UHGV virus genome: UHGV-0385297
Origin: a virus
Length of the DNA stretch: 64,000 nucleotides
Strand: one strand, 5' to 3'
Shown here: one piece after another, positions 1,283 through 57,196 of the stretch
Layout of the letters: each line of letters starts with the position of its first letter
How positions within the stretch are numbered: position 1 is the stretch's first letter
Notes under the pieces: model-generated
What the model saw: the letters and a program-made list of their open reading frames with translations, nothing else
Told to the model about the DNA's origin: nothing
The model's database searches: none
Translations under genes and position numbers: made by a program

Positions 1283-2236
1283 TTAGAAAGTAAACTTGTC
1301 CTTGTTCTCCTTTACCTTTTTCTTATTAACAGTCAAGTAATGACGTACAGTAGTTTCGGTACTCTCATGATGTAAAAGTTCTGCTATATCCTGAATATCC
1401 ATACCAAGCTCTTTTAAAATATTTGAACCACTATGTCTAAGATCATGATTATGAAGTGTAGGTACACCGATCATTTTTCCTGCCTTTTTACACCAGTCGT
1501 TCAATGTGCTATTTTGAATACATTGAGTTTCTGTAACGTGAGGAGTAATAAATACCCAGCCAAAATCATTGATATTATTTTCTTCTCTATATTTCTTCAA
1601 TTTTCTTAGCAATTGCTCGACTTCCGGAGAGAAATATAAATCAACAACCTTTTGTTCTTTTTCAAGAACGTCATTGCACATACGCTCATCAAGATCAACT
1701 TGTTCCCATTTCAAATGAGACATTGCGTTTACACGAGCCATGGTAGATAACCCAAACATAATATACGTTTGCAGTTGTATGTCTCCATTTTCTTCAAGTT
1801 TTTCTCTTAACAAATTGACCTGATCAACACTTAAAAATGTTTGTTTGATAATAGCCATTCCTTGTTTTGGACGTTCTAGGAATTCTGTAGGAGATTCTTT
1901 AATCAATTTTTTCTTACGGAGAAATTTATAAAAAGCAGATACGGAAGCCATTACTCTTTTCTGTCTATTAACATTATTTCCTTGCTCTTTTCTCCAATAA
2001 AAATATTCCTCTATGTCTTCATCTGTTGCTTCCAGCACTGACAAATTAAATTGATTATCGTACATATAAATAAACCACTGTCTTAAATCTGAATTATACT
2101 GTTGAATACTATTATGAGATAAATCACGAATAGACATATCAATCTGATATTTTTGAAATAGTTTTAACGTTTCTGGATTGATATGTCCCAATTTTTCTTT
2201 ATCGTACAATAAAATTCTTTTACTTTTTTCTGCCAT
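1283..2236 (-). CDS. int: Tyrosine recombinase / phage integrase (XerC/D-like)
   Basis: Catalytic residues are visible (R in ARVNAMSHLKW, HDLRHSG, LLHHES..TTVRHYL with the Tyr). The ATG at 2236 has an AAAGGAAGTGAG RBS; the track's longer start at 2257 is less likely. Confidence 0.8.
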   Translation of the reverse strand: MAEKSKRILLYDKEKLGHINPETLKLFQKYQIDMSIRDLSHNSIQQYNSDLRQWFIYMYDNQFNLSVLEATDEDIEEYFYWRKEQGNNVNRQKRVMASVSAFYKFLRKKKLIKESPTEFLERPKQGMAIIKQTFLSVDQVNLLREKLEENGDIQLQTYIMFGLSTMARVNAMSHLKWEQVDLDERMCNDVLEKEQKVVDLYFSPEVEQLLRKLKKYREENNINDFGWVFITPHVTETQCIQNSTLNDWCKKAGKMIGVPTLHNHDLRHSGSNILKELGMDIQDIAELLHHESTETTVRHYLTVNKKKVKENKDKFTF

Positions 2237-2715
2237 TTTCTCACTTCCTTTACCCAAAAAATAAAAAGAAGCGAGATAGCAGTAAAATATATCACTTCTT
2301 TATAAATAAATATTCTATACTGAACAAAATTGCGTTTTCCGCAACTTTTTTAAAATGCGCAAATTTTATTTTTATACCACGTTGTCCGATATTTTCACAA
2401 ATGTCCGATTATCCACCATTACATTGCTCCTTTTGGTGGATATTCGGACAAATCAAATACTTGATTTTTACTAATATATCAATGTTTTTTTGAGTTTTTT
2501 TGCGAATCGTTACCTCTATACACTCTATTACTTATTATTAGCGTTAGCCACATAGCTTTTCTTTTTCTGATTCTGACGTTCTAATGCGGCTATGCCGCTT
2601 CTTTTTATAAATACCATTTTGAAAATAAGTGTAATTTTTTACACCTTTTCGCTCTAAAAGGTGTAAATATATACACCTACAATGAAGACTTTTTATAGTA
2701 TTTTAAGTAAAAATC

Positions 2716-5907: not shown

Positions 5908-7098
5908 TTATACAAGTTCAATAGGGTAGTAACAAGCTACTCCTTTTTGATTACAGATACATACCATCTGAGATGGTTTTCCAGATAATCTCTTCTCAAT
6001 AGTAAATTGATCACCTGAACCAGCTAAAGTACCACCTCGAATCATTTTTACTCCATTTGCTTCATCAACTGCACAAGTGTGCATGTGACCCATAATTAAG
6101 GCATATGGGAAATACCCAAGCATAGAGCAGAGATTATATGTACCTGCTTTAGAGAATGGGTCGTAGTCTCCGTGAACAACAGTGTAAAACTTTCCACGAA
6201 TATCCAAGTCTACAATACCTACATCCAAATTTCTCTTTAAAATATGGATATTAGATATATGCTGTAAAGATAAACCAACACCCCATGTAATAATGTCATC
6301 AAGACGTTCATCGTGTAATGCATCTTCCTTACGCTCAATCCTGGTATGATTCCCAACTACACTTGAAATAAATACATTTGAAAAATGTTTAGACAATTCA
6401 TAGCAGAAAGATGAAATAAGTTCGGTTGCAATCTTAATCTGTTCGATAACATTTTCTCTATTTGTTACCTGTAAACTTTTATGGATGGACCCTGAAATCA
6501 TATCTCCACATAAAACCACATAACATTTCTCTGAATTATGTAACTCCCTAATAGCAATTACTTCGTTCAGTAATTTATTAAGCCTTTCAGCGGCAATATT
6601 GGAATTGTATTCTCCCCAAACAGAATTAAAGCACTGTCCAATATGAAAATCACTTAAGACAATTAACATATCATTATCAGATGTAACATCTACTTTTTCA
6701 TGAGTCTCAAAATTAGTACGCCCAAGCTGAGAAAGTGTACTTTCCAGCAGGTCTAATTTATTTTCTACACGGGCATCAATATAATTCTGTCTCTGCCAAG
6801 CAGTTCGTTCATCTCTAAACTGAATTTTCTTTCGTTCTAGTTCACGGATCTGTTTATCCAACTCATTATTACGGTTTTCCTTAGAGAATACTTCTGTATT
6901 GAAATCTTTAGCATTGTTGTAACGCTTACGATAAGCACTCTCAGAGCGATAAACGGTTTCATCTTCCCTAAACGCCTTATTAATCAATGCAGCAATTTCG
7001 TCCCATGTCATATCTAAAAGGCCGTTTTCTTTTGCCTGTCCTAATCTCCAAATATACTGAAGTTCGGATTCTCCGTTTAATAAATCTGTATTAAACAA
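5908..7098 (-). CDS. Calcineurin-like metallophosphoesterase with an N-terminal coiled coil (SbcD/Mre11-like?)
   Basis: The motifs LSDFHIG, LCGDMISG, VGNHT and GHMH are preceded by a ~130-aa heptad-rich region. Confidence 0.6.
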   Translation of the reverse strand: MFNTDLLNGESELQYIWRLGQAKENGLLDMTWDEIAALINKAFREDETVYRSESAYRKRYNNAKDFNTEVFSKENRNNELDKQIRELERKKIQFRDERTAWQRQNYIDARVENKLDLLESTLSQLGRTNFETHEKVDVTSDNDMLIVLSDFHIGQCFNSVWGEYNSNIAAERLNKLLNEVIAIRELHNSEKCYVVLCGDMISGSIHKSLQVTNRENVIEQIKIATELISSFCYELSKHFSNVFISSVVGNHTRIERKEDALHDERLDDIITWGVGLSLQHISNIHILKRNLDVGIVDLDIRGKFYTVVHGDYDPFSKAGTYNLCSMLGYFPYALIMGHMHTCAVDEANGVKMIRGGTLAGSGDQFTIEKRLSGKPSQMVCICNQKGVACYYPIELV

Positions 7099-13668: not shown

Positions 13669-14532
13669 CTAAGCTTTTCTATTTGTGGTATTACGTTTTT
13701 CGTTATATTTTTTATATCTAATTAAATCATTTTTTCTCTTACACTCACCACAATACATTTTCTTATTTCCTGTTTTTTCAATCAGTGCGCCACATTGTTT
13801 ACAGCGAGTGTACTTATTATTGTGTCCACGCTTAACTCCATAATATTCTTTCTGATAATTTCGAATATAATAGGAAAGAGAACGATTTATGTACTTAACA
13901 TAGAAATGATCTTCAGTAATAAAATCAAAATTATTTACAAGCTTTGTCTTATCTTCATACTCGTCAATCAATTTACAATTGTCAAAACACTTTCTAAGAA
14001 AACCCTCAATTATGATTTTGTACTCGTTCCAGGAAAGGGTCATTTTTTCTTTCTGAAATCTTTCTTTCGTGGTTAAAGCTTTATCCATAATGTCATCTAT
14101 GACAGAAGTAGCATTTTCTTCGGTCATATCTACACCAGAAGCCCATTTGTAATACAATTGTTTTGGCTTTTTGAGCAAATCCATATATTCCTTATTTAGA
14201 ATTACTTCTTTATCAAAATATTTCGTATAAATATTATTTATTTTTTGCCTTATAATTGAACACCAATTTTGATTTTTGGAAACAGATTTATAGTATTTAT
14301 ATTCAATCATGGACCATGCATCAAATACTTGTCCAACTGGTGTTCCCAGTAAATTCTTTGCTACCTTAAATCGAATAGCTTTCTTATATGTTCTTCTTTT
14401 ATTTCCACATGACCAGATGGCGGAGCAGAACGAAGAGAAAACTTCGTCCTTTTGCTCCTGAGTCTGTAGTTCTTTGTATTTTTCTATAATTTCATATAGA
14501 AATGTTTCGTTACAGTCGTAAATATGTATCAC
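13669..14532 (-). CDS. Hypothetical protein with a C-terminal zinc ribbon
   Basis: It carries CKQCG...CGEC at the C-terminus. Its start overlaps the end of the polymerase gene by 23 nt. Confidence 0.5.
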   Translation of the reverse strand: MIHIYDCNETFLYEIIEKYKELQTQEQKDEVFSSFCSAIWSCGNKRRTYKKAIRFKVAKNLLGTPVGQVFDAWSMIEYKYYKSVSKNQNWCSIIRQKINNIYTKYFDKEVILNKEYMDLLKKPKQLYYKWASGVDMTEENATSVIDDIMDKALTTKERFQKEKMTLSWNEYKIIIEGFLRKCFDNCKLIDEYEDKTKLVNNFDFITEDHFYVKYINRSLSYYIRNYQKEYYGVKRGHNNKYTRCKQCGALIEKTGNKKMYCGECKRKNDLIRYKKYNEKRNTTNRKA

Positions 14533-17140
14533 CTACTTCAAATTCATAATATTTTCCAAGATATTCATAAGTATTATATGATTTGTATGGAACTTCTCGA
14601 ATAGAAATATTTCGCTTTGGATTAGTATTATTTTTTAAATTCTCAATAATATATTCTCCATAAGCAGCCCAAGCTAAAGATTTACTGATTGAAAGAGAAG
14701 AGTATGAAGTTGCAATAACATAATTGGCAATAACATCTTCGTCAAGTTTAAGTTTTTCAGAAATATTATCTTTATATTTCTTTACAACTTCGTCCATACT
14801 AAAATCATTATTTTCATCTTTATGTAAATTTAGATGCTGCTTTATTTCATCTGCATACATATTGATGAATTTCTTACACTCTTTAATGACTCCTTTATCT
14901 TTTAGATTAAGGTCATTGTTGACGATTAAGCATCTTGTATCTATAAGATCATTAACACTGTTATCCCATTTAATATTCTTTTTCTCCCATGTCTCGATGT
15001 ATTCACATAATTCATTCATAGGAGAAGGAGACCTATAGGCATTCAATTTTTCTTTCTCATCTGGTTCAACTCCCTTATTTTTACTAAGAATATTCTGATA
15101 CGTTTTCATTTTTTGAGGATAATTATGAAGCAAGAAATACGGTAGCTGTTTTAAATGTTTTCTCAGACCACTATTCATATGCCACCTAAAACCGGTTTTA
15201 AGAAAATCAATTTCTTTGCCCTGGAAAATTCTTAGAAGAGAAGAGGAATCAGAGTATAACTTCTGAATATCTGGATTTGTTGTATACCGATTCTCAATGC
15301 TTGTTGCTACATTGGTTATTTCACCAATACGGTTATCTCTTGTCATTACTTCATACTCAATTAAATTTTCTTTCGTATATGGTTTTGACTTTGCTGTAAC
15401 CTTATCTTCGACATCAAGAATAATATGTTTGTCAATTTTTGAACCAATAACAATTGGTTCGTTGCACAAAAAGAAAATATCCCCGTCAAAATCTGCCCCT
15501 CCCTGCTGCGGGGCAGATATATCATACATATTAAACATCACGACATCTTGATCTTTAAAATATCCGAACCATTTATTTAAAATGTCATTTCGCACAATTT
15601 GAATCTTGTTTACTTCAGATGGGTCCACAAGAGGAGATCTAAAAGAAGCACAATATCCTGGTTCAAAATTTGCAGTATATAATTCTCTTTCTTTTAAGCA
15701 ACCGACTGGATTTTCTCCGACTGCATATTGAAGATAACCAATCATATCACCAACACCTGTATGATAAAAACCAGAACAATAAATTTTTCCTACTTTTGCC
15801 TCATCAATGGATTTTTTTAATTTTCTATAAATAAACTGCTTTACTGCAGGATCCTTCAACATTACATCATTGATCAATGCTGCTTCGAGATATTTACTTT
15901 CTGGCTCATATCCATCTGTATCATTTATACCCATGAATTTGTAGGTATAAAATTTATCTCCTTTAATAATCTTCTCGAATAGGTTAGTAGTGTATTTTGC
16001 CAATTTGATGATTTTTCCATCATTGTCAGGATTTAAAACGTCATATTCTTTTCTATTTTTATCTACAAAACTATTGATGTATTTCTCATTCCATAGATCA
16101 AGACATTGTAAATACTGAAAATTCATTCTGGTGTACTTGTTTAAGTGCTTTACATGATGGCTATACTTACTAATACCTAATTTAAACTGATATTTCTGTA
16201 ATGTCTTCATATATTCAATCCATGCATCATTTCCATACTTTGATTTAAAAATCTTATGACCTTTAAACATTGAGATGTTCCAGATACAATCAATATCATC
16301 GATTTTATGCTCATATCCATAGATATCAGTAATAGTAGTGTATCCCCATTCCTTTAGAATTTGTTTAAATGGAACATATACGGAATATCCTTTTATAAAT
16401 GGCAGACGAACCTGGTTTCCAATAACGTCATAGCCTAAATCCAACTGTGTACTAACAGTTTTCATAAATTCTCTTTCATGACAACCACATCCATCAAAAG
16501 GAGATAATCCTATATCTCTTAAACCTTCTTCAATTTCTCTAACTTTATATTTTTTGGACTCACCAGTTTCTTTATCTACGAAAGTTTTTTCTTTTTCTAT
16601 GACATATTTGATAAGCTGATCATTTAAAGTTTTTTCATATTCACCGATGATAACAATATTTGGAATATAATCTTTAATGAGAGTACAGGAGCTAAACGGG
16701 AGACATCTTTGCGCTTCATATTTAGAAATAACGCACTCATCAATTTCAATATCCATTTGAGTGATCATGTATAATTCATCGAAAATTTCGTCACATACAA
16801 AAGCAGTAATACCGTCTTTTCCCTGAGATGCAGATTTTCCAAAACGAGAATAATGAGTACCGTTATACGTAAATCCATTATTAAGAATATCTCGCAGTGC
16901 GGTTTCTTGTTTTGGATTCTTTTTTGCGACTATAAGCATAAGCTCTTTAATATGTGTTGAAAATCTACCTCTTAGCCTTTGAATCTGATCAAACAATAAG
17001 GAATCACCTTGTTTAATAAGATATTCATTATCTATTTCTTCATTTTTACTTAGACTCAAATCATATTCTGAATCAATGAGTTTTTTGATTGGTAACTTAA
17101 CCAAAGTGTATTGAATTGATTTTATAATAAACACCACCAT
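14510..17140 (-). CDS. YonO-like single-subunit RNA polymerase candidate
   Basis: This 876-aa protein contains QQGGADFDGDIFF. ADFDGD is the invariant Mg-binding loop of multisubunit RNAP beta-prime and of the SPbeta-prophage YonO polymerase. Its size and its HU-like neighbour also fit YonO. Confidence 0.55.
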   Translation of the reverse strand: MVVFIIKSIQYTLVKLPIKKLIDSEYDLSLSKNEEIDNEYLIKQGDSLLFDQIQRLRGRFSTHIKELMLIVAKKNPKQETALRDILNNGFTYNGTHYSRFGKSASQGKDGITAFVCDEIFDELYMITQMDIEIDECVISKYEAQRCLPFSSCTLIKDYIPNIVIIGEYEKTLNDQLIKYVIEKEKTFVDKETGESKKYKVREIEEGLRDIGLSPFDGCGCHEREFMKTVSTQLDLGYDVIGNQVRLPFIKGYSVYVPFKQILKEWGYTTITDIYGYEHKIDDIDCIWNISMFKGHKIFKSKYGNDAWIEYMKTLQKYQFKLGISKYSHHVKHLNKYTRMNFQYLQCLDLWNEKYINSFVDKNRKEYDVLNPDNDGKIIKLAKYTTNLFEKIIKGDKFYTYKFMGINDTDGYEPESKYLEAALINDVMLKDPAVKQFIYRKLKKSIDEAKVGKIYCSGFYHTGVGDMIGYLQYAVGENPVGCLKERELYTANFEPGYCASFRSPLVDPSEVNKIQIVRNDILNKWFGYFKDQDVVMFNMYDISAPQQGGADFDGDIFFLCNEPIVIGSKIDKHIILDVEDKVTAKSKPYTKENLIEYEVMTRDNRIGEITNVATSIENRYTTNPDIQKLYSDSSSLLRIFQGKEIDFLKTGFRWHMNSGLRKHLKQLPYFLLHNYPQKMKTYQNILSKNKGVEPDEKEKLNAYRSPSPMNELCEYIETWEKKNIKWDNSVNDLIDTRCLIVNNDLNLKDKGVIKECKKFINMYADEIKQHLNLHKDENNDFSMDEVVKKYKDNISEKLKLDEDVIANYVIATSYSSLSISKSLAWAAYGEYIIENLKNNTNPKRNISIREVPYKSYNTYEYLGKYYEFEVGDTYLRL

Positions 17141-17860: not shown

Positions 17861-18643
17861 TTATATATTGTTATTCTCTAAAAGTTCTATTTGTTTTTCG
17901 ATTTCCTTATTGCAATCATAGGTTTGATCAATTACCTGGTTGCCATAACTGTCTTTCGTGAAATGTCTGTAATCTGCAAAAACTTTAGGTGTAGTAATAT
18001 ATTTTTCACGAGTTGAGGTGCTGTCTTTGATTCTCTTCATAGCTTTTGATTTTATAATTTCTAATGCATCTAAAATTTCTACTATCCTACCTACGTAACG
18101 TTCTGAAAGTCCTGTTTCATCTGAAATGGTTTTATAATGCCGGTAACAGCATAATGGGGATGTTGAAGATCTATTCATATTTAGACGGAGATAAGATAGA
18201 AGCAATAGAATATATGAAGAAGACATACGGATCGTGTCTACGGAAGTTCCTTCTAATTCTTCTTTAAAATTTAAAATTTTTTCAAGCTCATCGAAGTAAA
18301 TAATTCCAAAACGATCTGGTATATCAAATTTTTCAATATTAAGTTTTACCTGCAGGTATTTCACAGAATTAGTATGTTCTTTTAAACACTTTTCAAAGTC
18401 AGGAAACGTTTCAAAATAATTCTGGTCTGCAAGAAGTAGTAATGTATTATAATATTTCTGATTAATCTTTCCATCTCGGTAATTTGGCTTAAGTTTTGAC
18501 CAGTGGCATAATTCTGTAGTAGAAAATGCCACTGTGTCATCAAGAGAACGCCTTGCACATAAGTATGAAAAGATAATCACACGTTTATCCGATAGGGCAG
18601 TATCATATATAATTTCTTTTGGAATCTTCACATAATTAGGCAA
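17861..18643 (-). CDS. Hypothetical wHTH protein (possible replication organiser)
   Basis: The stretch ETGLSERYVGRIVEILDALEIIK looks like a winged helix-turn-helix; the function is inferred. Confidence 0.45.
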   Translation of the reverse strand: MPNYVKIPKEIIYDTALSDKRVIIFSYLCARRSLDDTVAFSTTELCHWSKLKPNYRDGKINQKYYNTLLLLADQNYFETFPDFEKCLKEHTNSVKYLQVKLNIEKFDIPDRFGIIYFDELEKILNFKEELEGTSVDTIRMSSSYILLLLSYLRLNMNRSSTSPLCCYRHYKTISDETGLSERYVGRIVEILDALEIIKSKAMKRIKDSTSTREKYITTPKVFADYRHFTKDSYGNQVIDQTYDCNKEIEKQIELLENNNI

Positions 18644-18706: not shown

Positions 18707-19324
18707 TTAATGAGTATGTTTGTTATTTTCATATTCATTTTCAATCTCCTTTGCAATTTTATTACAATATAATTTATATAGTTTTATAACTTCATCATTT
18801 GAAAATCTAATCGTCATATAATTATTCTCCAAAAAGAAAATTCTTCGCATTTTATCTTTTAATTGCTGTAGTTTGTTTGTATGATTTGATCCGTCTATTT
18901 CAATTATCGTTCTCGATTTTCTATCTACAAAATCGGCAATATATCTTTTTACACCATATTTTTTGTATCCATCTTTACCTGTTCCAAATGATATTTGGCA
19001 CTCCAAGTATGGATACATTTCTTTAAATATTCGTTCATGTTTCGTGGTGAATTTATCATTACAACCGCCATGTAAATTAGATTTTTCATAAATTAAATAA
19101 TCTTTATAATTATGTACTTGGGTTATAACATTGTACAACGGTAAACTACTCTCAAATATTTTTTGAGATAAATCAGACAAACAAATGTTATTCATTTTAG
19201 AAAGCTTCTTTTTTAATAAAATCCAATTAAGACGTTCTTTGGAAACATCTATAGATTCTTGATACTTTCTATTAAAAACATTCAGTTCCTCAATGTTAAT
19301 CTGTTGCATTTTTAATTCCTCCAA
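18707..19324 (-). CDS. PD-(D/E)xK (DUF559-like) endonuclease-domain protein
   Basis: RYIADFVDRKSRTIIEIDGSNH...IRFSNDEV matches the C-terminal domain of 8198-9343. Confidence 0.55.
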   Translation of the reverse strand: MEELKMQQINIEELNVFNRKYQESIDVSKERLNWILLKKKLSKMNNICLSDLSQKIFESSLPLYNVITQVHNYKDYLIYEKSNLHGGCNDKFTTKHERIFKEMYPYLECQISFGTGKDGYKKYGVKRYIADFVDRKSRTIIEIDGSNHTNKLQQLKDKMRRIFFLENNYMTIRFSNDEVIKLYKLYCNKIAKEIENEYENNKHTH

Positions 19325-19382
19325 TTTAAATATTTTATTTGTAATATCTTATTCTCCAAAATTTTAAAAATCTTTCTGTACA

Positions 19383-19958
19383 TTTAGGTACATCATCTTA
19401 TACCCAAAACTCGCTCTGTCAGATTTTAAAATAGAAGAGTAGCTTTACATGGTCTGAAGTCCCCAATTTGGGTACATTTATATATACCTAAAATTCACTT
19501 TATCCAACTAAAGCAAAAATACGTTTAGGTACATGTAGGATATACCCAAAAGTGTAAAATTCCTTCATTTGGGTACATGCCAGCTATCACTTTTGTGCAG
19601 TCCATATCAAGATAGACTCATATATATCAAGAGAAGAGTATTGTACATTCACAATAAATTGTTCATGTACGATTACGGGCTTCGCCCTATATTTTGTTCT
19701 CTCTTTTTCTTTCTCTCCATTTGTTTTCTTCCTTTTGATATTTGGGTACATATATGTGTACCTATCTGCAGGTTTCTTTCTTCTTGTTTATTTTCTCTAT
19801 TTGGGTACATAGTTTATATACCTAAAATGAGTGGAAAAATAATAATATGTTCTTTAAATTGATTTCTTATGTATTTTTTTCATCTTTCTTTTATCCATTT
19901 CCACCTATTTTCACCTAAAACAGATTCGTATCCTCTTTCTTTTAAGATTTGGGTACAT
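19383..19958. repeat. Array of at least seven TTT(G/A)GGTACAT 11-mers, four with an inverted half-site (TACC(C/T)AAAA) 5-8 bp downstream
   Basis: Copies lie near 19383, 19465, 19523, 19569, 19737, 19800 and 19948. Further copies are at 20630 and 24118. Confidence 0.8.
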
Positions 19959-20146
19959 GCTTCAGCTCCGATCCAGTCATAGTCTAATGGTTCCTGGCAG
20001 CAGTGTAGGTAATAATCAATCTGTCCTATTAACCATTTATCCGAATTATTTTGTGATGCTGATAAAGTTCTTCTTTTAAAGCTATGTATTCTTGTTTATG
20101 TTCTTCATCAAGTGTTGACCATAGATCCACAGGATATAACATCATC
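19880..20146 (-). pseudogene. Frameshifted ORF
   Basis: MMLYPVDLW...HHKIIRING stops, then continues in the +2 frame as WLIGQIDYY...KWIKER. No single intact frame is 60 aa or longer. Confidence 0.35.
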
Positions 20147-20353
20147 TTATTTGTATCCTTTCTTATATAAGTCTTTGCATACTGCATAACCGATTGATGC
20201 CAAGTCATTGCCTTTTTTAATCTTTTCTTTCCAATTCTGCATACATACCTCTATAGAATTGGGAAATTTATAAGTCTTGTAAAATTCGTACATGATTGCA
20301 TATAACTCTTTAAATTCTTTTACTGTATAAATCTTTGTTTCTTTTGATGTCAT
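20147..20353 (-). CDS. Hypothetical small protein
   Basis: The ORF is 68 aa. Confidence 0.45.
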   Translation of the reverse strand: MTSKETKIYTVKEFKELYAIMYEFYKTYKFPNSIEVCMQNWKEKIKKGNDLASIGYAVCKDLYKKGYK

Positions 20354-20925
20354 TTTGAATTACCTCATTTTCTGTTTTATTTTATTGCTATATTATTGTT
20401 CTCCATTTTAAAATTTTTTCTTTGGATTTCTTTTTGTCCTGTTTCTGATCAGAAGAGTAATTAACTTTCTTCATATGCTATTAGTAGATCTACGATCACT
20501 TTTTAAGGATTAAAATCCATTTGGATGGCCCAGGTGATAAGTTGCTATGGTGCGAGATTCAACTGTCTTATTTTTCTGTGAGATAAGATTTAGGCTAATG
20601 AATATCCTGGATGGCTATTCAGGTACATGTTTTGGGTACAATGTTTTGTCTACCCTTGGAAATTCTTTCTTCGCAGGCTCAGAAAGACCGTCCCTAATCA
20701 TAGGGACTATTTCTTGTCAGTTTTTAGATAGGGGAGTAGTTAATGATCAGAATGAGATGTTCTACGAAATTCTTTACATGGGATTTGGTAACTCTGTGTG
20801 AGTTTTTGATACCTATTTTCGTTTCTAAGTATGCGAGTGGTAAGTTGGTAGGGTAGGAGAGTAAAATGGCTAGAATTTTTCTGAGCGTTGATTTAAACAA
20901 ATGATATTTTAGAGATATGAATTAG

Positions 20926-20958
20926 GTACAAAAAATAAGACACCCTGATCAGGATGCC
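20926..20958 (-). terminator. Rho-independent terminator for 20966-21820
   Basis: On the minus strand a CAUCCUG..CAGGGUG hairpin is followed by UCUUAUUUUUUGU. Confidence 0.55.
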
Positions 20959-20965
20959 TTATCTA

Positions 20966-21820
20966 CTATGATGCTTTATCAAAAATGGTTGTATATTTAG
21001 TTTGGGTTGTTTCCAGCTGCATAAGATTATACTGTCGCAGAAGTGTATCTACTACGTTTTCGAACAATACTCTAATGTGAGGTGAATGTTCAATGGCATC
21101 TAAGGTATAACATGTTTTCAGTTTATTTTCATAGCAATAATCTTCTTTTAGCTGATTTAAATCTATATCAGGATAGAGATTCTGCATTTCTCTGTAAAGG
21201 TTCTTATATAATTCTGTATAAGAAATATCAAAATATTCTGCTAAGAGCTGATACTTTGGGAACATCTTTGTGGACCAATAGGAATATTTACGCTGAGAGA
21301 TTGATTTCTGTGTAGTCTTAAGATTATTGATCTCATTTTGCATAACAGTAATAGTAGTAGTGATGTCTGTCATAGCTTTTGTTAATTCGGATACTGTTTT
21401 AGTTAATGAAAATACTGCATCTGTGACTTGAGTAAAATCATTCATTGAGACCAGATCATTGTGTCGGTATTTTTCTACAATATCCCATACCCAATCCATG
21501 AAAAGGTTTGCTTTTGGCTGTCTGGACCAACGGCAGATTTCCATAACACCACGTTCTGTATAATAAACACGCTCTTGTTCTTCGCTCTTAGTCAGGTTAG
21601 TACCAATTTGGTACTGACCTAATTTCATTCTTATACATAATGGATCTAATCTATCCTTATGCTTAAGATGAATTCTTCTAATACACATTGATGGATCAGT
21701 ATATTCTAACGCCTGACCAATCTGTTCTCTTGTAAGAAGGATATCATCATTCATATTACGATAGAAGCTGCAGGATAAATTATTAAAGGTTTCTGTGGTT
21801 ACTAATTTTAATGTACTCAT
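20966..21820 (-). CDS. Bro-N/ORF6N-like antirepressor-family protein
   Basis: The N-terminus FNNLSCSFYRNMNDDILLTREQIGQALEY...ERGVMEICRWSRQPKANLFMDWVWDIV fits the family. Confidence 0.55.
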   Translation of the reverse strand: MSTLKLVTTETFNNLSCSFYRNMNDDILLTREQIGQALEYTDPSMCIRRIHLKHKDRLDPLCIRMKLGQYQIGTNLTKSEEQERVYYTERGVMEICRWSRQPKANLFMDWVWDIVEKYRHNDLVSMNDFTQVTDAVFSLTKTVSELTKAMTDITTTITVMQNEINNLKTTQKSISQRKYSYWSTKMFPKYQLLAEYFDISYTELYKNLYREMQNLYPDIDLNQLKEDYCYENKLKTCYTLDAIEHSPHIRVLFENVVDTLLRQYNLMQLETTQTKYTTIFDKAS

Positions 21821-21920
21821 TTAGTTGTCTCCTTATGTATTTTTACTTTGTTAGTGGTTACATAAGAATATTCTCCTAATGAGTTAGGATTTGTTTACAG
21901 TTTAATTTGTAATAAAATCT

Positions 21921-21950
21921 TTCTTTGTATATTGAATGTTGTATGTTATA
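21921..21950 (+). promoter_or_regulatory. Sigma-A type promoter for 21986-22849
   Basis: TTGTAT, a 16-nt spacer and an extended -10 (TGtTATAAT) sit in the divergent intergenic region. Confidence 0.45.
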
Positions 21951-21985
21951 ATCATGTATAAGTCATATAATTTTAGGAGGAGAGC

Positions 21986-22849
21986 ATGAGAAGATCGTTA
22001 AAGGATTTGCGCGGTGTCGAAAAAGATTCATATAAAGGTTTGCCTGAAGAGCTGAGAGAGTTCAATTATTATATTCCTGATTGTGGCAATGTAATTATGG
22101 CTGTGCCTGAGTGTTTATTAGAGAAAGCAGAAGAAAACGGTGAACTGGATATGTTTGAGTGTCCGTTTCCTGTAAAGTATGTGTTGGAAAAAGGATATAG
22201 AATATATAAAAATCACGTTATTTGTGAAGGAAAGTATGATAAGTTTGTTGGATTGCAGGTTGAAGAGGATTATTATGAATATAATAGACCAAGTAAGAGT
22301 AGTGGCGGATCAATATATACAAATGCGTTGATTAATGCTCTCAAAGGTAAGGTCTTTCCATCTTATATAGGGATGTCAGAAGGCACATTATTTGATATGA
22401 GTGATACAGGAGCTACTTTGACCATGTTTATGTATGATCCTGAAAAAGATGAAATTGCACAGTTTGATAGGTCTAAACCAGTTGAGATTCGATTTGCTGC
22501 TATAAAAGATGTCATTATGATGACTATTAAATTGGGCAATTTAGAATGGTGGGAAGCACCATACAGTGTTCATTTAAGTAGGAATTTGACACGGATGCCG
22601 GTCATTGAAGATGGTAAGGGTATTAATCTTACTTTGATGTTAGTTAATATTAGAACTGGAAGAGTAGAAAATGTAAAAGTAGTACAGCTATCTACAGAAT
22701 TTAGTGTTGCGCTATGCAAGGCTATTGATAAGCAGAGATCTACGAAGTTCTCGAATACAATGTATAATATAAATATTGATCGGTTATATGATATGTATAC
22801 TGCGGATCAGCTGGCAGAAATGGGTACTGCAAGGTGTAAGATTGGTTAA
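21986..22849 (+). CDS. Hypothetical protein
   Basis: A 287-aa ORF with a GGAGGAG RBS. Confidence 0.55.
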   Translation: MRRSLKDLRGVEKDSYKGLPEELREFNYYIPDCGNVIMAVPECLLEKAEENGELDMFECPFPVKYVLEKGYRIYKNHVICEGKYDKFVGLQVEEDYYEYNRPSKSSGGSIYTNALINALKGKVFPSYIGMSEGTLFDMSDTGATLTMFMYDPEKDEIAQFDRSKPVEIRFAAIKDVIMMTIKLGNLEWWEAPYSVHLSRNLTRMPVIEDGKGINLTLMLVNIRTGRVENVKVVQLSTEFSVALCKAIDKQRSTKFSNTMYNINIDRLYDMYTADQLAEMGTARCKIG

Positions 22850-23340
22850 TGGTAGAGTGGATTTGTAGTATAGATATAATGGTAGATACGACAAGTTAAT
22901 AATCGGATACGTTAGAACGATCCCTGGGTAATGGTATGTTATGTACTGTTACTTGGGGATTTTTTGTTGTGTAATTGTGTTGGGATGGATCGGAATGGAT
23001 GAAGGGTATGTTTTGATGTGTTATGAGTTGAAAACATGGAATCGTAAATTCCCTTTAATATAATGAAGAAACACGTTTTAAGATTAGAATTTTAATTTTT
23101 GGGATGTTGCATTTTTTGAAATTTTGGTGCGATTTTTATTGAGATTGCGGGATTTTTACGATAAGGGGGCCGATAACAGTTTTTGAGGTGGTGACGAGGG
23201 GATTTTGGGCGTAGTTGTGGGGAAATGGAGTGTTGGGATTTGGAATGTAGATGGGAGAGGAGCGTGATACACCTGGATGAGTTGGAAGTGGTGGGTGATT
23301 TGGAAGAGATGTTCAAATTTTAATTTGAAAGTTTGATTTT
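22850..23340. other. GT-rich, nearly cytosine-free tract with no ORF
   Basis: About 490 bp of G/T runs (GGGATTTTT three times, GTGTTGGGAT twice, GGGG runs). The opposite strand is C/A-rich and G-poor. Confidence 0.7.
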
Positions 23341-23467
23341 GAACTTAGTGTGTAGATGAAACAGCTACCGGCTCTGGTGAAAACACTTTAGCACTTTAAA
23401 GTTTTAACCAGCCCCCATAAACAATAATAGTAATAATTACTGTTATTTTACACGGTTTTTTCCTATT

Positions 23468-23481
23468 TTACCGTAGCCGAA
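23468..23481. promoter_or_regulatory. LexA (Cheo/SOS) box CGAACATATGTTCT
   Basis: It matches the Bacillus-type consensus CGAACATATGTTCG at 13 of 14 positions. Confidence 0.6.
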
Positions 23482-23506
23482 CATATGTTCTGTTATTTGA
23501 TCCGAC

Positions 23507-23520
23507 TTCTGGCAATCGAA
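23507..23520. promoter_or_regulatory. LexA (Cheo/SOS) box CGAACATATGTTTG
   Basis: A 13 of 14 match to the consensus, 39 bp from the first box. Confidence 0.55.
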
Positions 23521-23662
23521 CATATGTTTGCTTATTGACTGTGAGCTATGATAGTTTTTTAAACTTTTACATGTAGTATTGATAACTACATGTAATGATA
23601 TTTAATACTATAAGAGGTAGTTCGACAGTGAAAAAATAATATCGAAAAAATTAAAATTGTTA

Positions 23663-23691
23663 TTGACAATCACACTATCATGTGATATATT
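23663..23691 (+). promoter_or_regulatory. Consensus promoter with a TCACA-N6-TGTGA operator in its spacer
   Basis: TTGACA, a 17-nt spacer (atcacactatcatgtga) and TATATT. Confidence 0.7.
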
Positions 23692-23763
23692 ATAGTCAAG
23701 TTCATAAAGAACGACAGCGGGAACGCTGTTATAGCACTTTTAAAAGTTTTTAGAAAAAAGTGC

Positions 23764-23792
23764 TTGACAATCACATGAACGTGTGATATAGT
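23764..23792 (+). promoter_or_regulatory. Second tandem promoter with the same operator
   Basis: TTGACA, a 17-nt spacer (atcacatgaacgtgtga) and TATAGT. Confidence 0.7.
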
Positions 23793-23799
23793 CATTAAT

Positions 23800-24400
23800 G
23801 TAAGAACAAAGTAGTTCAGTTCTTACAGCCGCTAAAATGCCCATGTGGGGCGGTGGCAAGTTCCTTGTCAATTTAATAGGAATAAAGCCCATGAATTGAA
23901 AAATTCACAGGCTTTAAAAGTTGGTTTGATAAACCAAACCGTAGCAAGTTCAGTTTATCATTCTATCTTTCATTTGTCAAGTCTGGCAAGTGTTTTCCTA
24001 TTAATCGGCTACCAGTGACGGCACTGGTGGACTTTGCGCAACGGTCAAGATAACAATACTGGATGCCCGCAAGAGTGTCTAGCGTTTACGCAAGTAAGCG
24101 CATTGTGAAAATACCCGTTGTGGGTACATTGAAAAATAAACAACTTATACAGTGTTTTATAAAGCGTTTGGCATTTTCAACAACGGGTGAATTCCCCGTT
24201 AAAATGTCCGTGTAGCGTATAAAAGCGTTACACTAGCAAGCTGGACTTAGCACGACTGCGGTTGTGAACGTGTTCGCATTTGCGCACTTAGCTTGCTACT
24301 GGTGAAAATCCCACACTAGGATTCTGAAATCTTGCCTAGTAGTGACCCGTAAGAAGGTAGGAAGTCGGTTTAAGGCTGAGAAGCATTTTGGACAATAAAT
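23800..24400 (+). ncRNA. Candidate large structured RNA or leader (GC-rich island, no ORF)
   Basis: GC is about 45-48% against roughly one-third in the flanks. Nested inverted repeats include AAAGCC..TGAATT..AATTCA..GGCTTT, GGTTTG..CAAACC, CCCGTTGT..ACAACGGG and TAGCAAGCT..AGCTTGCTA. It lies downstream of two strong promoters. Confidence 0.3.
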
Positions 24401-24538
24401 AAAATGATTGTAAGACGTGTCGTTATACATAGGTCAAGGGGCGGACTAGCACTACCAGTCTGTCCTTTGCTCGTGTGCATAACACGGCAACTACAAAAAA
24501 TAATTTTAATTCCGCAATGCGGAGAAAGAGGTATTTAT

Positions 24539-26710: not shown

Positions 26711-26866
26711 AGGCAGACCATGCTCTGCCAGCTCTGAGTTATGGAAACCGCTACGAGGTTCAGAGCAGACAACGGAATTTATTTCGGCTAATATCCATAG
26801 GTAACTTGTAAACCAGTATAAAAACCGTTATACTTGACTTATAAAAGTGAAAGGCGGTGGAAAGGA

Positions 26867-27703: not shown

Positions 27704-27732
27704 TTGAAAATCACATGTATATGTGATAGAAT
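27704..27732 (+). promoter_or_regulatory. Third promoter carrying the TCACA-N6-TGTGA operator
   Basis: TTGAAA, a 17-nt spacer (atcacatgtatatgtga) and TAGAAT, directly upstream of the Cro-like gene. Confidence 0.65.
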
Positions 27733-27763
27733 GGAGGTAATTATATAGGACGGAGGAAAGGAA

Positions 27764-28045
27764 ATGATAGTATATAGAAAACTAAACAATTTGCTAAAAG
27801 AAAAAGGAATGACATGGAAAGATTTATGTCAAGCAGGAATTAGTGTTAATATGCCAACTAAATTTTCACTAAATAGAGTAGTGAAAACAGATGTTATAGA
27901 TAAAATTTGTGCATATTTACATGTTCAACCCGGTGACATAATGGAATGGGTAGAAGATGAGGATGAATTAAAGCAACTTGAAATAGAATCGCAAATCGCA
28001 GCACTCAAAAAGCAACTCGCAGATCTTAAAGGAGACAAACCATAA
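27764..28045 (+). CDS. XRE/Cro-type HTH regulator
   Basis: The HTH LKEKGMTWKDLCQAGISVNMPTKFSLNRVVK is present. The gene's own promoter carries the operator shared with the 23.7 kb promoters. Confidence 0.65.
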   Translation: MIVYRKLNNLLKEKGMTWKDLCQAGISVNMPTKFSLNRVVKTDVIDKICAYLHVQPGDIMEWVEDEDELKQLEIESQIAALKKQLADLKGDKP

Positions 28046-30256: not shown

Positions 30257-31384
30257 ATGTGTAGAATTGATGGAAAGAAACTTACTGTATTAAGAAAATC
30301 TCAGAAAATGAGCCAGGAGGATTTAGCAAAGAAAAGTGGTTTAAGTAGGAGTGCCATAGGTAATTATGAAACTGGAAGATTTAATGCAAGTGATGAGGCA
30401 TTGGATATGATTGCACAGGCTTTAGGTGTTGAATCAAAAGAACTTGATAAAGATTTTATCCAGCTTGGAAAAGCTGTTATAGAAGGTAAAAATGATTCTC
30501 ACCATATCCATAACACAGATAAGCGGTATTTAACTCCACAGGAAACTCAGGAAATCCTTGATAAATTACGGTCTTATAGTGACAATGTGTCACTTGAAGA
30601 AGCGAAACGAGCATTGACAAAAGCAAACCAGTCTACAGTAGGCAATAAGGTATATGCGGTTGTAGCGATTAAAGGATTAAATATTCCTGTATGGCAGAGA
30701 AATACAGACAAAGAGAAATGCTTAGAAATCAGCCAGAAATATGATGAAAACAAATATGATCCAATTAAAGTATATGCTTTCAATGAAAAGTTATACGTAG
30801 CTGATGGAGCGCATAGATTAATTGCTTACATCATGCGAGGAGAAGAATATATTCTGGTTGAACTTATGGATATTGAAACGGAAATTGAAGCAGCTCATAC
30901 GTTCTTATTACAGAGTTTAGGCAGACGGAGAATGTCTCAGAATGATATGTGGAGAGCTGCTATTAAAGCCGGATTAGTCCAGTACGAAACATTACGGAAA
31001 ATTGCTATTAAAAATAAAATCCAGATTAAGGCAGATCTTAAGACGATTAAGAACCCTGTCGGAACTATCAATGCAGTATCAGGGAAAATGTTACGGATTG
31101 CGCATAGTGACCCTGATGTATTAGAGAAAGTGTTCGCTCTTATTAAAACACTTGGTTGGAATGCATCTGATACAAGTCCATACAAAACTTATATCCTGTG
31201 TACTTTGAAAAATATGTACGCAAATTTCAGCGAAAGAGAGAATGAATTAGAGAAGTTGATGATGGAAAACTGTATGGGTGCAACCTATTTTGAAGAGAAA
31301 GTTGCAACTGTAAATACACAGACAAGACTGTATGACGTTTTAATGGAAGATATTTCCAAAAATGCAGAAAAGAAAACTGCATAA
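30257..31384 (+). CDS. XRE-HTH fused to a ParB/sulfiredoxin-like domain
   Basis: An N-terminal HTH (LSRSAIGNYETG) and a central region KLYVADGAHRLIAYIMRGEEYILV that resembles the ParB N-terminal GxxRxxA box. The gene stands alone between a terminator and a hairpin. Confidence 0.6.
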   Translation: MCRIDGKKLTVLRKSQKMSQEDLAKKSGLSRSAIGNYETGRFNASDEALDMIAQALGVESKELDKDFIQLGKAVIEGKNDSHHIHNTDKRYLTPQETQEILDKLRSYSDNVSLEEAKRALTKANQSTVGNKVYAVVAIKGLNIPVWQRNTDKEKCLEISQKYDENKYDPIKVYAFNEKLYVADGAHRLIAYIMRGEEYILVELMDIETEIEAAHTFLLQSLGRRRMSQNDMWRAAIKAGLVQYETLRKIAIKNKIQIKADLKTIKNPVGTINAVSGKMLRIAHSDPDVLEKVFALIKTLGWNASDTSPYKTYILCTLKNMYANFSERENELEKLMMENCMGATYFEEKVATVNTQTRLYDVLMEDISKNAEKKTA

Positions 31385-56182: not shown

Positions 56183-56194
56183 AGGAGAATGATT

Positions 56195-57196
56195 ATGGAA
56201 GAGAAAAGTAGATATGCAACAAAGAAAAAAGGTAAAACAGAAGTTCAGCCATTATGGAATATGGAAGATATTAAAGCGGTTATAGAATGGTTTGAGAAAA
56301 AAGAAGATTGGGATGGATATTTTATCACCATGTTAGAGCTTCTTCTTGGTAGACGTATTGGTGATACTATCTCTATGAAGTGGTCTGATCTGTATTATGA
56401 AAACGGAAAGAGAAAAGAAGCAATTAACACTATTGTAGAGCAGAAGACAGGTAAAGTCACTGAACTGCCAGTAAGTCATATGACATATGAAGCAATGGAT
56501 ATTTATTTGGACCATACCGGCATTAATCCAATGCAGCATTATGATGAGTTTATTTTTAAATATGAAGCGAAAACTGCATGGGTTCAGCGTTATGATAATC
56601 CTGTGTATGATAATACAGACATAGAAGAATGGTGCAGATTCTTAGGAAAGGATTTTACGGAAGATCGTAAACAGAAAATTTTAAAGGATTTTGAAAAGCA
56701 AAAGGAGTATAAAACATTAGGTGGTTATTTGTATTATGAAGTAGAATGGAATGACATTGTAAAGTGGCAGTCTGATGATTATAGGAAGAAACTAAAACAG
56801 GCTGCGAAAGCTATTGGTATCACAACTCCAGTCAGTACGCATAGCCTTCGGAAGTCGCTAGGATACTGGGTGTATAAAATGCATATGTTCGATCCTAACT
56901 GTTTGCTGACATTACAGAAGCTCTTTAATCATGCAGATCTTCAGACAACTATAATTTATATTGGTTTAGTGGAGGAACAGAAGAGAAGATATTTGGAAGA
57001 TCATGGAGAGTTCATTAAGAACGTCCTGGCTGGCAAGGGAGATGAAATCATCAAAAACATGCCGGTCATTTCATTAAAATCAAACGACTTTGGAAATGTA
57101 ATTATGAATGTTATCAAGGGAATGCAGGAAGGCAAAGAAGCAGTTGAGGTTTACCAGATTGCTATTAACATGGCAAATGAGAAGCGAATTGCGTAA
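56195..57196 (+). CDS. Tyrosine recombinase (second copy)
   Basis: R in LLGRRIGDTIS, then HSLRKSLG, then LQKLFNHADLQTTIIYI with the Tyr. RBS AAGGAG. Confidence 0.7.
   Translation: MEEKSRYATKKKGKTEVQPLWNMEDIKAVIEWFEKKEDWDGYFITMLELLLGRRIGDTISMKWSDLYYENGKRKEAINTIVEQKTGKVTELPVSHMTYEAMDIYLDHTGINPMQHYDEFIFKYEAKTAWVQRYDNPVYDNTDIEEWCRFLGKDFTEDRKQKILKDFEKQKEYKTLGGYLYYEVEWNDIVKWQSDDYRKKLKQAAKAIGITTPVSTHSLRKSLGYWVYKMHMFDPNCLLTLQKLFNHADLQTTIIYIGLVEEQKRRYLEDHGEFIKNVLAGKGDEIIKNMPVISLKSNDFGNVIMNVIKGMQEGKEAVEVYQIAINMANEKRIA

Follow-up and report, generated by a model that had tools for sequence, protein, structure and literature searches.

What accounts for a cluster of short repeated sites in otherwise non-coding DNA of a phage? 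The question is raised by a 64,000-nucleotide stretch of the virus genome UHGV-0385297 (hereafter the window), which belongs to a large temperate phage (G+C content about 33%) and in which copies of the 11-mer TTTRGGTACAT crowd into positions 19383-19958. These sites are real, selected and confined to a single locus, and they co-occur and co-vary with a protein family represented in the window by a 260-amino-acid protein encoded 0.7 kb from the array. The explanation that we favour, though tentatively, is that the array is an iteron-type phage replication origin with autoregulatory dyads, bound by this protein.

The repeat array and its conserved core

Exact copies of TTTRGGTACAT number seven, all on the plus strand, with starts at 19383, 19467, 19524, 19568, 19741, 19800 and 19948. 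The 576 bp that they span hold every exact match on either strand of the window, for which arithmetic from base composition gives a chance expectation of about 0.14 per 64 kb. A scan allowing one mismatch returned 19 matches, compared with 3.5 ± 1.9 in shuffled sequences, and none of 100 shuffles reached 19. The initial annotation had described at least seven copies in a region free of open reading frames (ORFs), and both points hold: the array region contains no credible ORF, only a 97-amino-acid TTG ORF and two ORFs of 45-54 amino acids. Start-to-start spacings between successive sites are 84, 57, 44, 173, 59 and 148 bp.

At four of the sites (19383, 19467, 19524 and 19800) an inverted half-site, ATATACCYAAA, follows the 11-mer after 4-5 bp, giving 26-27-bp dyads of the general form TTTRGG-N14/15-CCYAAA. 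The pairing of four sites had been recognised initially, but the gap of 5-8 bp quoted then was too wide, the true figure being 4-5 bp, or 5-6 bp in the register used at the time. Dyad 1 (19383..19408, plus strand, as are all sites of the array), the nearest to the next minus-strand gene, reads TTTAGGTACAT-catct-TATACCCAAA; its inverted half-site reads TTATACCCAAA, and this right arm shows the greatest degeneracy and variability within the array. Dyad 2 (19467..19492; TTTGGGTACAT-ttat-ATATACCTAAA) is limited to the lineage of the window, and dyad 3 (19524..19550; TTTAGGTACAT-gtagg-ATATACCCAAA) is the ancestral full site, present in essentially all relatives. Dyad 6 (19800..19826) reads TTTGGGTACAT-agttt-ATATACCTAAA. 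At site 5 (19741..19767) the 11-mer TTTGGGTACAT is accompanied by a degenerate inverted partner, TGTACCTAT; four to five of the seven sites are thus dyads. The sites at 19568 and 19948 are lone copies with no inverted partner. The former, site 4 (19568..19578), is ancestral, always begins 43-44 bp away from where dyad 3 starts and abuts the conserved core described below; the latter, site 7 (19948..19958), shares a T/C-rich 5' flank with site 5.

Outside the array, one-mismatch copies are found at 20618 (TTCAGGTACAT), 20631 (TTTGGGTACAA) and 24119 (TGTGGGTACAT), the last two corresponding to further copies that had been placed at 20630 and 24118. The first two form a tandem pair of outlying weak sites on the plus strand (20618..20641; TTCAGGTACAT-gt-TTTGGGTACAA) which is probably real, since an exact copy is present at roughly the corresponding place in a close relative, L016 (L-numbers denote related loci). 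The copy at 24119 is no more than chance would give.

Conservation singles out the same elements. An alignment of six relatives that are 89-96% identical in nucleotide sequence over this region has 8 variable columns of 121 within the sites and 1 of 67 within the core, compared with 109 of 483 elsewhere, sites and core being far less variable than the remainder (Fisher p = 2.9e-5); the array sites are under selection. Since the flanks of the sites are mostly unrelated, the array is neither a recent tandem duplication nor an assembly artefact, and the even spread through the genome that had been raised as a further possibility is not observed in the window, where exact copies occupy one locus. 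The array is real and functional, and it is conserved in more than 100 related Lachnospiraceae/Clostridia prophage contigs.

Across loci, similarity in the array region is confined to a non-coding core of about 64 nt (19579..19642, strand unassigned) that is nearly invariant among the aligned relatives. It follows the pattern ...TTTTGTGCAGTCnATATCnnnATAGACTCATATnATCAAGAGAAGArTATT, within which lies a second small palindrome, AGTCnAT...ATAGACT, that varies without compensation. The pattern matches 105 viral-contig stretches and occurs just once in every one of the 80 contigs listed; matching contigs reach 186 kb. Rfam contains no match for the core, and RNAalifold yields -4 kcal/mol with no compensatory pairs and no supported consensus structure. 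Its A+T content is 57-78% in 40-bp windows, against about 67% for the genome on average, a modest A+T-richness at most. We regard the core as a candidate unwinding or assembly region.

Beside the core is a palindromic stretch (19638..19687, strand unassigned) comprising hairpins at 19638-19676 and, as GGGCTTCGCCC, at 19677-19687, followed by a T-rich tail. The position of the hairpin is kept in nearly all relatives, with many stem sequences that are unrelated among lineages. For 38 variants the mean folding energy is -11.1 on the plus strand and -11.8 on the minus strand, a bias too small to call the strand.

A slot alignment of the loci yields an ancestral unit consisting of a full dyad (19524), a single site (19568), the core (19579-19642) and the hairpin. 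In relatives the dyad is a perfect TTTRGGTACAT-N4/5-ATGTACCYAAA, and the dyad-to-single distance of 43-45 bp is the only spacing conserved among loci. Most relatives have 2-5 sites and the window's lineage 6-8, the lineage of the window having expanded the ancestral unit to seven sites.

On the sense strand, at 25-60 nt downstream from the sites, lies a possible further element, the box GGAGAATA(T), in the window at about 19350-19357 on the minus strand. It recurs in L022, L052, L127, L131 and L169, in L127 (which has no sites) downstream of the core, and its position is far upstream of the actual ribosome-binding site of the gene that follows.

Co-variation of the sites with a winged-helix protein family

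Homologues of the 260-amino-acid protein (gene at 17861..18643, minus strand), the proposed binder of the sites, were collected from 66 viral contigs and nine genome contigs. The motif occupies the same slot in nearly all contigs with a homologue, and in all loci the array is placed 0.1-2 kb upstream of the family gene. When loci were selected by the core, the orthologue was found in 71 of the 71 having sites and sufficient flank, and the loci with no sites encoded a paralogue only (3/3).

From the hairpin to the start of the 260-amino-acid gene, the DNA behaves as a replaceable cassette. In the pairs L060/L061 and L071/L078, homology runs as far as the hairpin and resumes at the gene start, the two members being unrelated between these points. 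At the minimal loci (L052, L064-67, L069 and L088) the cassette consists of core and sites only; with no gene between array and orthologue there, the binder cannot be a product of the variable cassette, and that candidate was rejected. Elsewhere the cassette has gained ParB-like nuclease or HNH genes and, in the window, a gene of the DUF559 family.

Cassettes that lack TTTRGG sites have another dyad pair at the same spacing, followed directly by another member of the 260-amino-acid family. L061 has two copies of TATATCAC-N8-GTGATATA, 45 bp apart, and then a 256-amino-acid paralogue (hhalign probability 98%). In L127, two copies of TATGTCACA...GTGACATA, also 45 bp apart, precede a paralogue of 291 amino acids, 63% identical to that of L061, which takes the place of the orthologue while the core is kept. 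In L078, two copies of GACGCTCTA-AA-TAGAGCGTC separated by 43 bp are followed by a 293-amino-acid family member (probability 88%).

The loci L078-L081 (approximately 6001-6764) represent a lineage in which the TTTRGG array has been replaced by the GACGCTCTA dyads and the 293-amino-acid member. In L078, the one locus examined, the old 260-amino-acid orthologue is split into two overlapping ORFs, probably by a frameshift, an arrangement that fits decay following loss of the sites.

Sites and protein also change in step where the orthologue is retained. Depending on the orthologue clade, the inner half-site is TACAT, TCTGC or TACCT, and both dyad arms and the single site change together. Clade-specific substitutions in the protein (R56H, Q62H, Y65L and L69E) fall in or beside a predicted helix at 62-73.

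Two points weigh against assigning the sites to the 260-amino-acid orthologue. Phages of the L061 type retain an intact orthologue, 94% identical to that of L060, with no TTTRGG site within 6 kb. Furthermore, the Bro-N protein encoded nearby is unsupported as the binder, since it sits in a homology arm common to L060 (with sites) and L061 (with none), and this shared-arm objection holds equally for the orthologue itself.

As regards the nature of the protein, its family, of which 506 members were found, has no Pfam or NCBIfam assignment; Pfam gave only sub-threshold matches to the HTH_36 and Cdc6_C winged-helix families, no family passing the threshold, and no match to Rep_3. An AlphaFold model (predicted local distance difference test score, pLDDT, 77; predicted template modelling score, pTM, 0.77) can be read, from its secondary structure and domain-level matches, as two winged-helix domains in tandem. 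In structure it matches best the R6K pi-iteron complex and the phage 'Replication protein O'. Among predicted viral structures (BFVD) the top match is to a full-length 'Replication protein O' (E 8.5e-8, template modelling score 0.62); 'Replication initiator protein' is among the other named matches, and the remainder are mostly generic helix-turn-helix proteins or unnamed. Profile comparisons point the same way: PHROGs annotated 'replication initiation protein' match 36, 27 and 26 of 39 family members, with a best E of 4.6e-8; for O-like PHROGs the numbers are 7 and 5 of the 39, and DnaD-like PHROGs match further members.

The candidate origin and competing explanations

The initial annotation had offered a replication origin with iterons, a centromere-like site or the operator cluster of a master repressor. 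The first is now the best supported, as the sites co-occur and co-vary with a winged-helix protein (17861-18643) that is initiator-like in fold and profile, and the other two have lost ground for reasons given below. We infer that the 260-amino-acid protein binds the sites, with replication initiation and autoregulation as the outcome, and propose that it is a distant relative of lambda O and of the plasmid pi-type initiators. TTTRGGTACAT would be its half-site and the 26-27-bp dyad TTTRGG-N14/15-CCYAAA its full site, dimers occupying the dyads and single subunits the half-sites of the same orientation. Sites, invariant core and adjacent palindrome would together mark the phage origin, and through the dyad closest to the gene the protein would in addition repress its own expression. 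That this gene-nearest dyad acts as an autoregulatory operator is likely. Dyads built from this half-site are found 60-150 bp ahead of the first gene downstream, as a candidate autoregulatory operator, and in L052, L065, L069 and L088 dyads stand directly upstream of the orthologue.

How far does such an origin resemble known ones? Iteron plasmids have direct repeats for initiation and inverted repeats upstream of rep for autorepression. As in the theta origins of Rep_3 plasmids, there are several same-orientation repeats at one locus, seven in the present case, and inverted half-sites upstream of a gene, like the autoregulatory operators of rep. In contrast to these plasmids (R6K pi, pPS10 RepA, F RepE and P1 RepA), the array repeats are not tandem units of about 22 bp, nor do their spacings match the regular tandem or helically phased 17-22-bp repeats of iteron origins. 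DnaA boxes are likewise missing from the array, as no match to TTATCCACA with up to one mismatch was found in 17-24 kb; there is no distinct A+T-rich unwinding element and no Rep_3 match, and the array belongs to an integrated prophage of more than 100 kb, not to a plasmid.

The likeness to the lambda origin is in the order of elements. In ori-lambda, iterons with internal dyad symmetry are followed by an A+T-rich stretch and then a palindrome, and among lambdoid phages iteron sequence and initiator specificity are exchanged together. Here too dyad-symmetric sites are followed by a core, albeit one of modest A+T-richness, and then a hairpin, and site type and protein are swapped together among relatives; the best viral structural match and the O-like PHROGs that match some members have been mentioned above. 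The four iterons of ori-lambda are closely spaced and lie inside the O gene, unlike the present array, which is upstream of the gene, has sites 44-173 bp apart and includes lone half-sites. Moreover, no P-like or helicase-loader gene follows the 260-amino-acid gene, and the sequence similarity of its product to O is under family thresholds.

The strongest competitor, in our estimation possible but unlikely, is a purely transcriptional operator cluster, through which the 260-amino-acid protein or another regulator would switch the leftward operon while replication starts elsewhere. That operon includes the 260-amino-acid gene, a dCMP deaminase gene and the gene for a YonO-like RNA polymerase, and the array would gate a later transcription programme. 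The position of the array upstream of genes, and the non-replicative character of its neighbours, fit such a role. However, seven same-orientation sites over 600 bp exceed the need of autoregulation at one promoter, and the full-length structural matches and the profile matches are to initiators, not regulators. Nor is there a sigma-70-like promoter over the sites or core, although the recognisable early promoters of this phage are near-consensus. The sole sigma-70-like match at the sites, a weak one (9/12) on the minus strand at 19422-19395, overlaps dyad 1; apart from it, the earlier statement that no promoter explains the array stands. None was found in the core of the window, L052 or L022, where the count is below shuffle expectation, and manual fitting of -35/-10, extended -10 or Bacteroidetes-type boxes to the core was unconvincing.

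Near-consensus sigma-A-type promoters occur on the plus strand at 23663-23692, 23764-23793 and 27704-27733 (TTGACA/TTGAAA, 17 nt, TATATT/TATAGT), the last just upstream of a Cro-like gene at 27764-28045. All three carry the dyad ATCACA-N6-TGTGAT between their -35 and -10 elements (three matches, 0.09 expected). This dyad probably serves the early rightward genes as their operator system, separate from the array, and no second member of the 260-amino-acid family that might bind it was found in the window. A master-repressor operator cluster is accordingly disfavoured, the array being at one locus and not at several promoters, and the early promoters carrying the other dyad.

Comparison with known operator systems leads to the same assessment. 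The operators of Bacillus phage phi105 and lambda OR/OL overlap identifiable promoters in the immunity region. The array is like them in having clustered copies of a short site in a non-coding control region, some directly oriented, and unlike them in having no identifiable promoter, the early promoters bearing ATCACA-N6-TGTGAT instead. In the Bacillus phage SPbeta, the 15-bp motif SPBRE, a target of the master repressor, is found at ten dispersed promoter regions, one of them that of yonP, and is bound by MrpR, a protein of tyrosine-recombinase fold (PMC10516654). In both cases a large temperate phage of Firmicutes that encodes a YonO-type RNA polymerase carries repeats of a palindromic element. 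The analogy was nevertheless rejected, since SPBRE is dispersed at ten promoters, a pattern at odds with exact copies at one locus of the window, and here the co-varying protein is winged-helix.

Much less probable is an RNA attenuator in the minus-strand transcript, in which the single site would be the antiterminator partner of the 5' arm of the dyad and the dyad hairpin the terminator, tuning read-through into the operon of initiator and RNA polymerase. The single site is indeed identical to the 3' arm of the dyad in the sense transcript, arms and single site co-change across the TACAT, TCTGC and TACCT types, and the dyad of L022 is flagged as terminator-like with 12 pairs. A T-rich tail (YGnATTTTT) also follows the ancestral dyad on the sense strand in most relatives, offset by 3-4 nt from the stem. 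But the other three dyads of the window have no T-tract, as is the case for TCTGC-type relatives and L088, and none of the window's dyads was flagged as a terminator. The R/Y position places an A-C mismatch on different strands in different dyads and so favours neither strand, and partnerless sites are conserved anyway (19948 in the window and two singles beyond the hairpin in L022). The RNAalifold result also tells against a conserved RNA structure. Known RNA families were excluded as candidates, with none at the Rfam gathering threshold in the whole window and none at E <= 1 in 19200-24500.

A centromere-like function in partition, or recognition of the array by terminase as a pac/cos site, we consider very unlikely. 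In favour of such a role, the repeated sites form a cluster present in single copy, many relatives have a ParB-fold gene immediately downstream, and a protein of the window (30257-31384) has helix-turn-helix and ParB-like profile matches. Yet the adjoining ParB-like nuclease and HNH genes are of different families, accompany several site types, occur in motif-free cassettes as well, and are absent from the array of the window and from the minimal loci. The window has no partition operon beside the array and no terminase gene near it. Some relatives lie in contigs of 240-515 kb and are therefore integrated prophages, for which plasmid-style partition would be unneeded.

The least credible proposal, that motif or core is the promoter of the phage's YonO-type single-subunit RNA polymerase, can appeal to the single promoter of SPbeta YonO and to a core that is directional, occurs in single copy and lies near the polymerase gene, but is rejected because polymerases at orthologous positions in relatives are 21-24% identical to that of the window (neighbouring genes, 57-83%) while the core is nearly invariant; moreover the array is upstream of the polymerase gene, not ahead of the structural genes, and seven copies in 600 bp, some palindromic, are unlike a promoter. 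In the SPbeta gene order, the promoter used by YonO lies near the polymerase's own gene. It is a single promoter of unknown sequence (PMC5467207). In a related idea, scarcely more plausible, the core (19579-19642) would not be an origin but the place where the phage's non-canonical transcription machinery, either the YonO-type polymerase or a conserved accessory factor, recognises the DNA or starts transcription, with the winged-helix protein as gatekeeper; if true, it would provide the first sequence-defined promoter and regulator for this class of polymerase.

Were the origin explanation correct, it would define origin and initiator for prophages of 80-200 kb that encode YonO-type RNA polymerases, a large uncultured group in Lachnospiraceae/Clostridia. 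The swapped modules of site and protein amount to a natural series with at least five specificities (TACAT, TCTGC, TACCT, TATATCAC/TATGTCAC and GACGCTCTA), suited to the study of how DNA specificity changes in winged-helix initiators, and bear on the replication incompatibility of co-resident gut prophages. In practical terms, the pattern of single-copy core plus sites is an annotation marker for these phages, and the element could serve as a candidate origin in Lachnospiraceae vectors. No concept is changed, since iteron or operator arrays beside the gene for their binding protein are well known; it is the phage group that is unstudied.

Genomic setting and other features of the window

Between 21820 and 1283 every gene is encoded on the minus strand. 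The leftward order is the Bro-N anti-repressor-like gene (20966-21820, minus strand), small ORFs, the array, the DUF559 endonuclease-like gene (18707..19324, minus strand), the 260-amino-acid gene, dCMP deaminase and the YonO homologue, and further leftward an exonuclease, a PhoH-like protein, a protease, tRNAs and a tyrosine integrase. The DUF559 gene, between the array and the 260-amino-acid gene, has no counterpart in relatives, in which the slot is empty or filled by ParB-like nuclease/HNH genes. The YonO homologue (14510-17140, minus strand; 876 amino acids; Pfam RdRP, E 1e-13) is related to the single-subunit RNA polymerase of SPbeta, with 23% identity to yonO and 30% to a protein of Thomasclavelia phage TR-TP1.

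The hosts of relatives are Lachnospiraceae and other Clostridia genomes. An identical copy of the 260-amino-acid protein is recorded in a 188,897-bp NCBI contig; GenBank phages and PLSDB plasmids gave no DNA or protein match to the region or to this protein.

The gene strand switches at 21821-21985, away from the array. The cumulative GC-skew minimum, which had been suggested as a check on an origin, is at 20499, between the array and this switch; it does not discriminate, being explained equally well by the latter. The interval 20380-20965, between the small leftward ORFs and the Bro-N gene, is ORF-poor and contains both this minimum and the weak sites at 20618-20641. Within it, a 7-bp G+C-rich hairpin at 20690-20707 is flagged as terminator-like on both strands.

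To the right of the switch, 1.5 kb without ORFs (22850-24404) precede the first large rightward gene. The region is partly G+C-rich with a G-over-C skew of about +0.35, gives no match in Rfam even at E <= 1, and two of the near-consensus promoters lie in it. At 26731-26800 on the plus strand is a match to an HDV-like ribozyme family (Rfam RF02682, HDV-F-prausnitzii), which at 44.1 bits barely passes the gathering score of 44.

Two genes of the window are tyrosine-recombinase-like (56189-57196, plus strand; 1283-2257, minus strand). Neither product matched solved chains named MrpR or YopR. By eye, both seem to keep the R / HxxR / H / Y catalytic motifs, and hence neither resembles a degenerate MrpR-type repressor. 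Finally, although the phage has a polymerase of its own, a 752-amino-acid protein encoded at 60413-62671 on the plus strand shows a weak PHROG match to an RNA polymerase sigma factor (E 1.4e-7).
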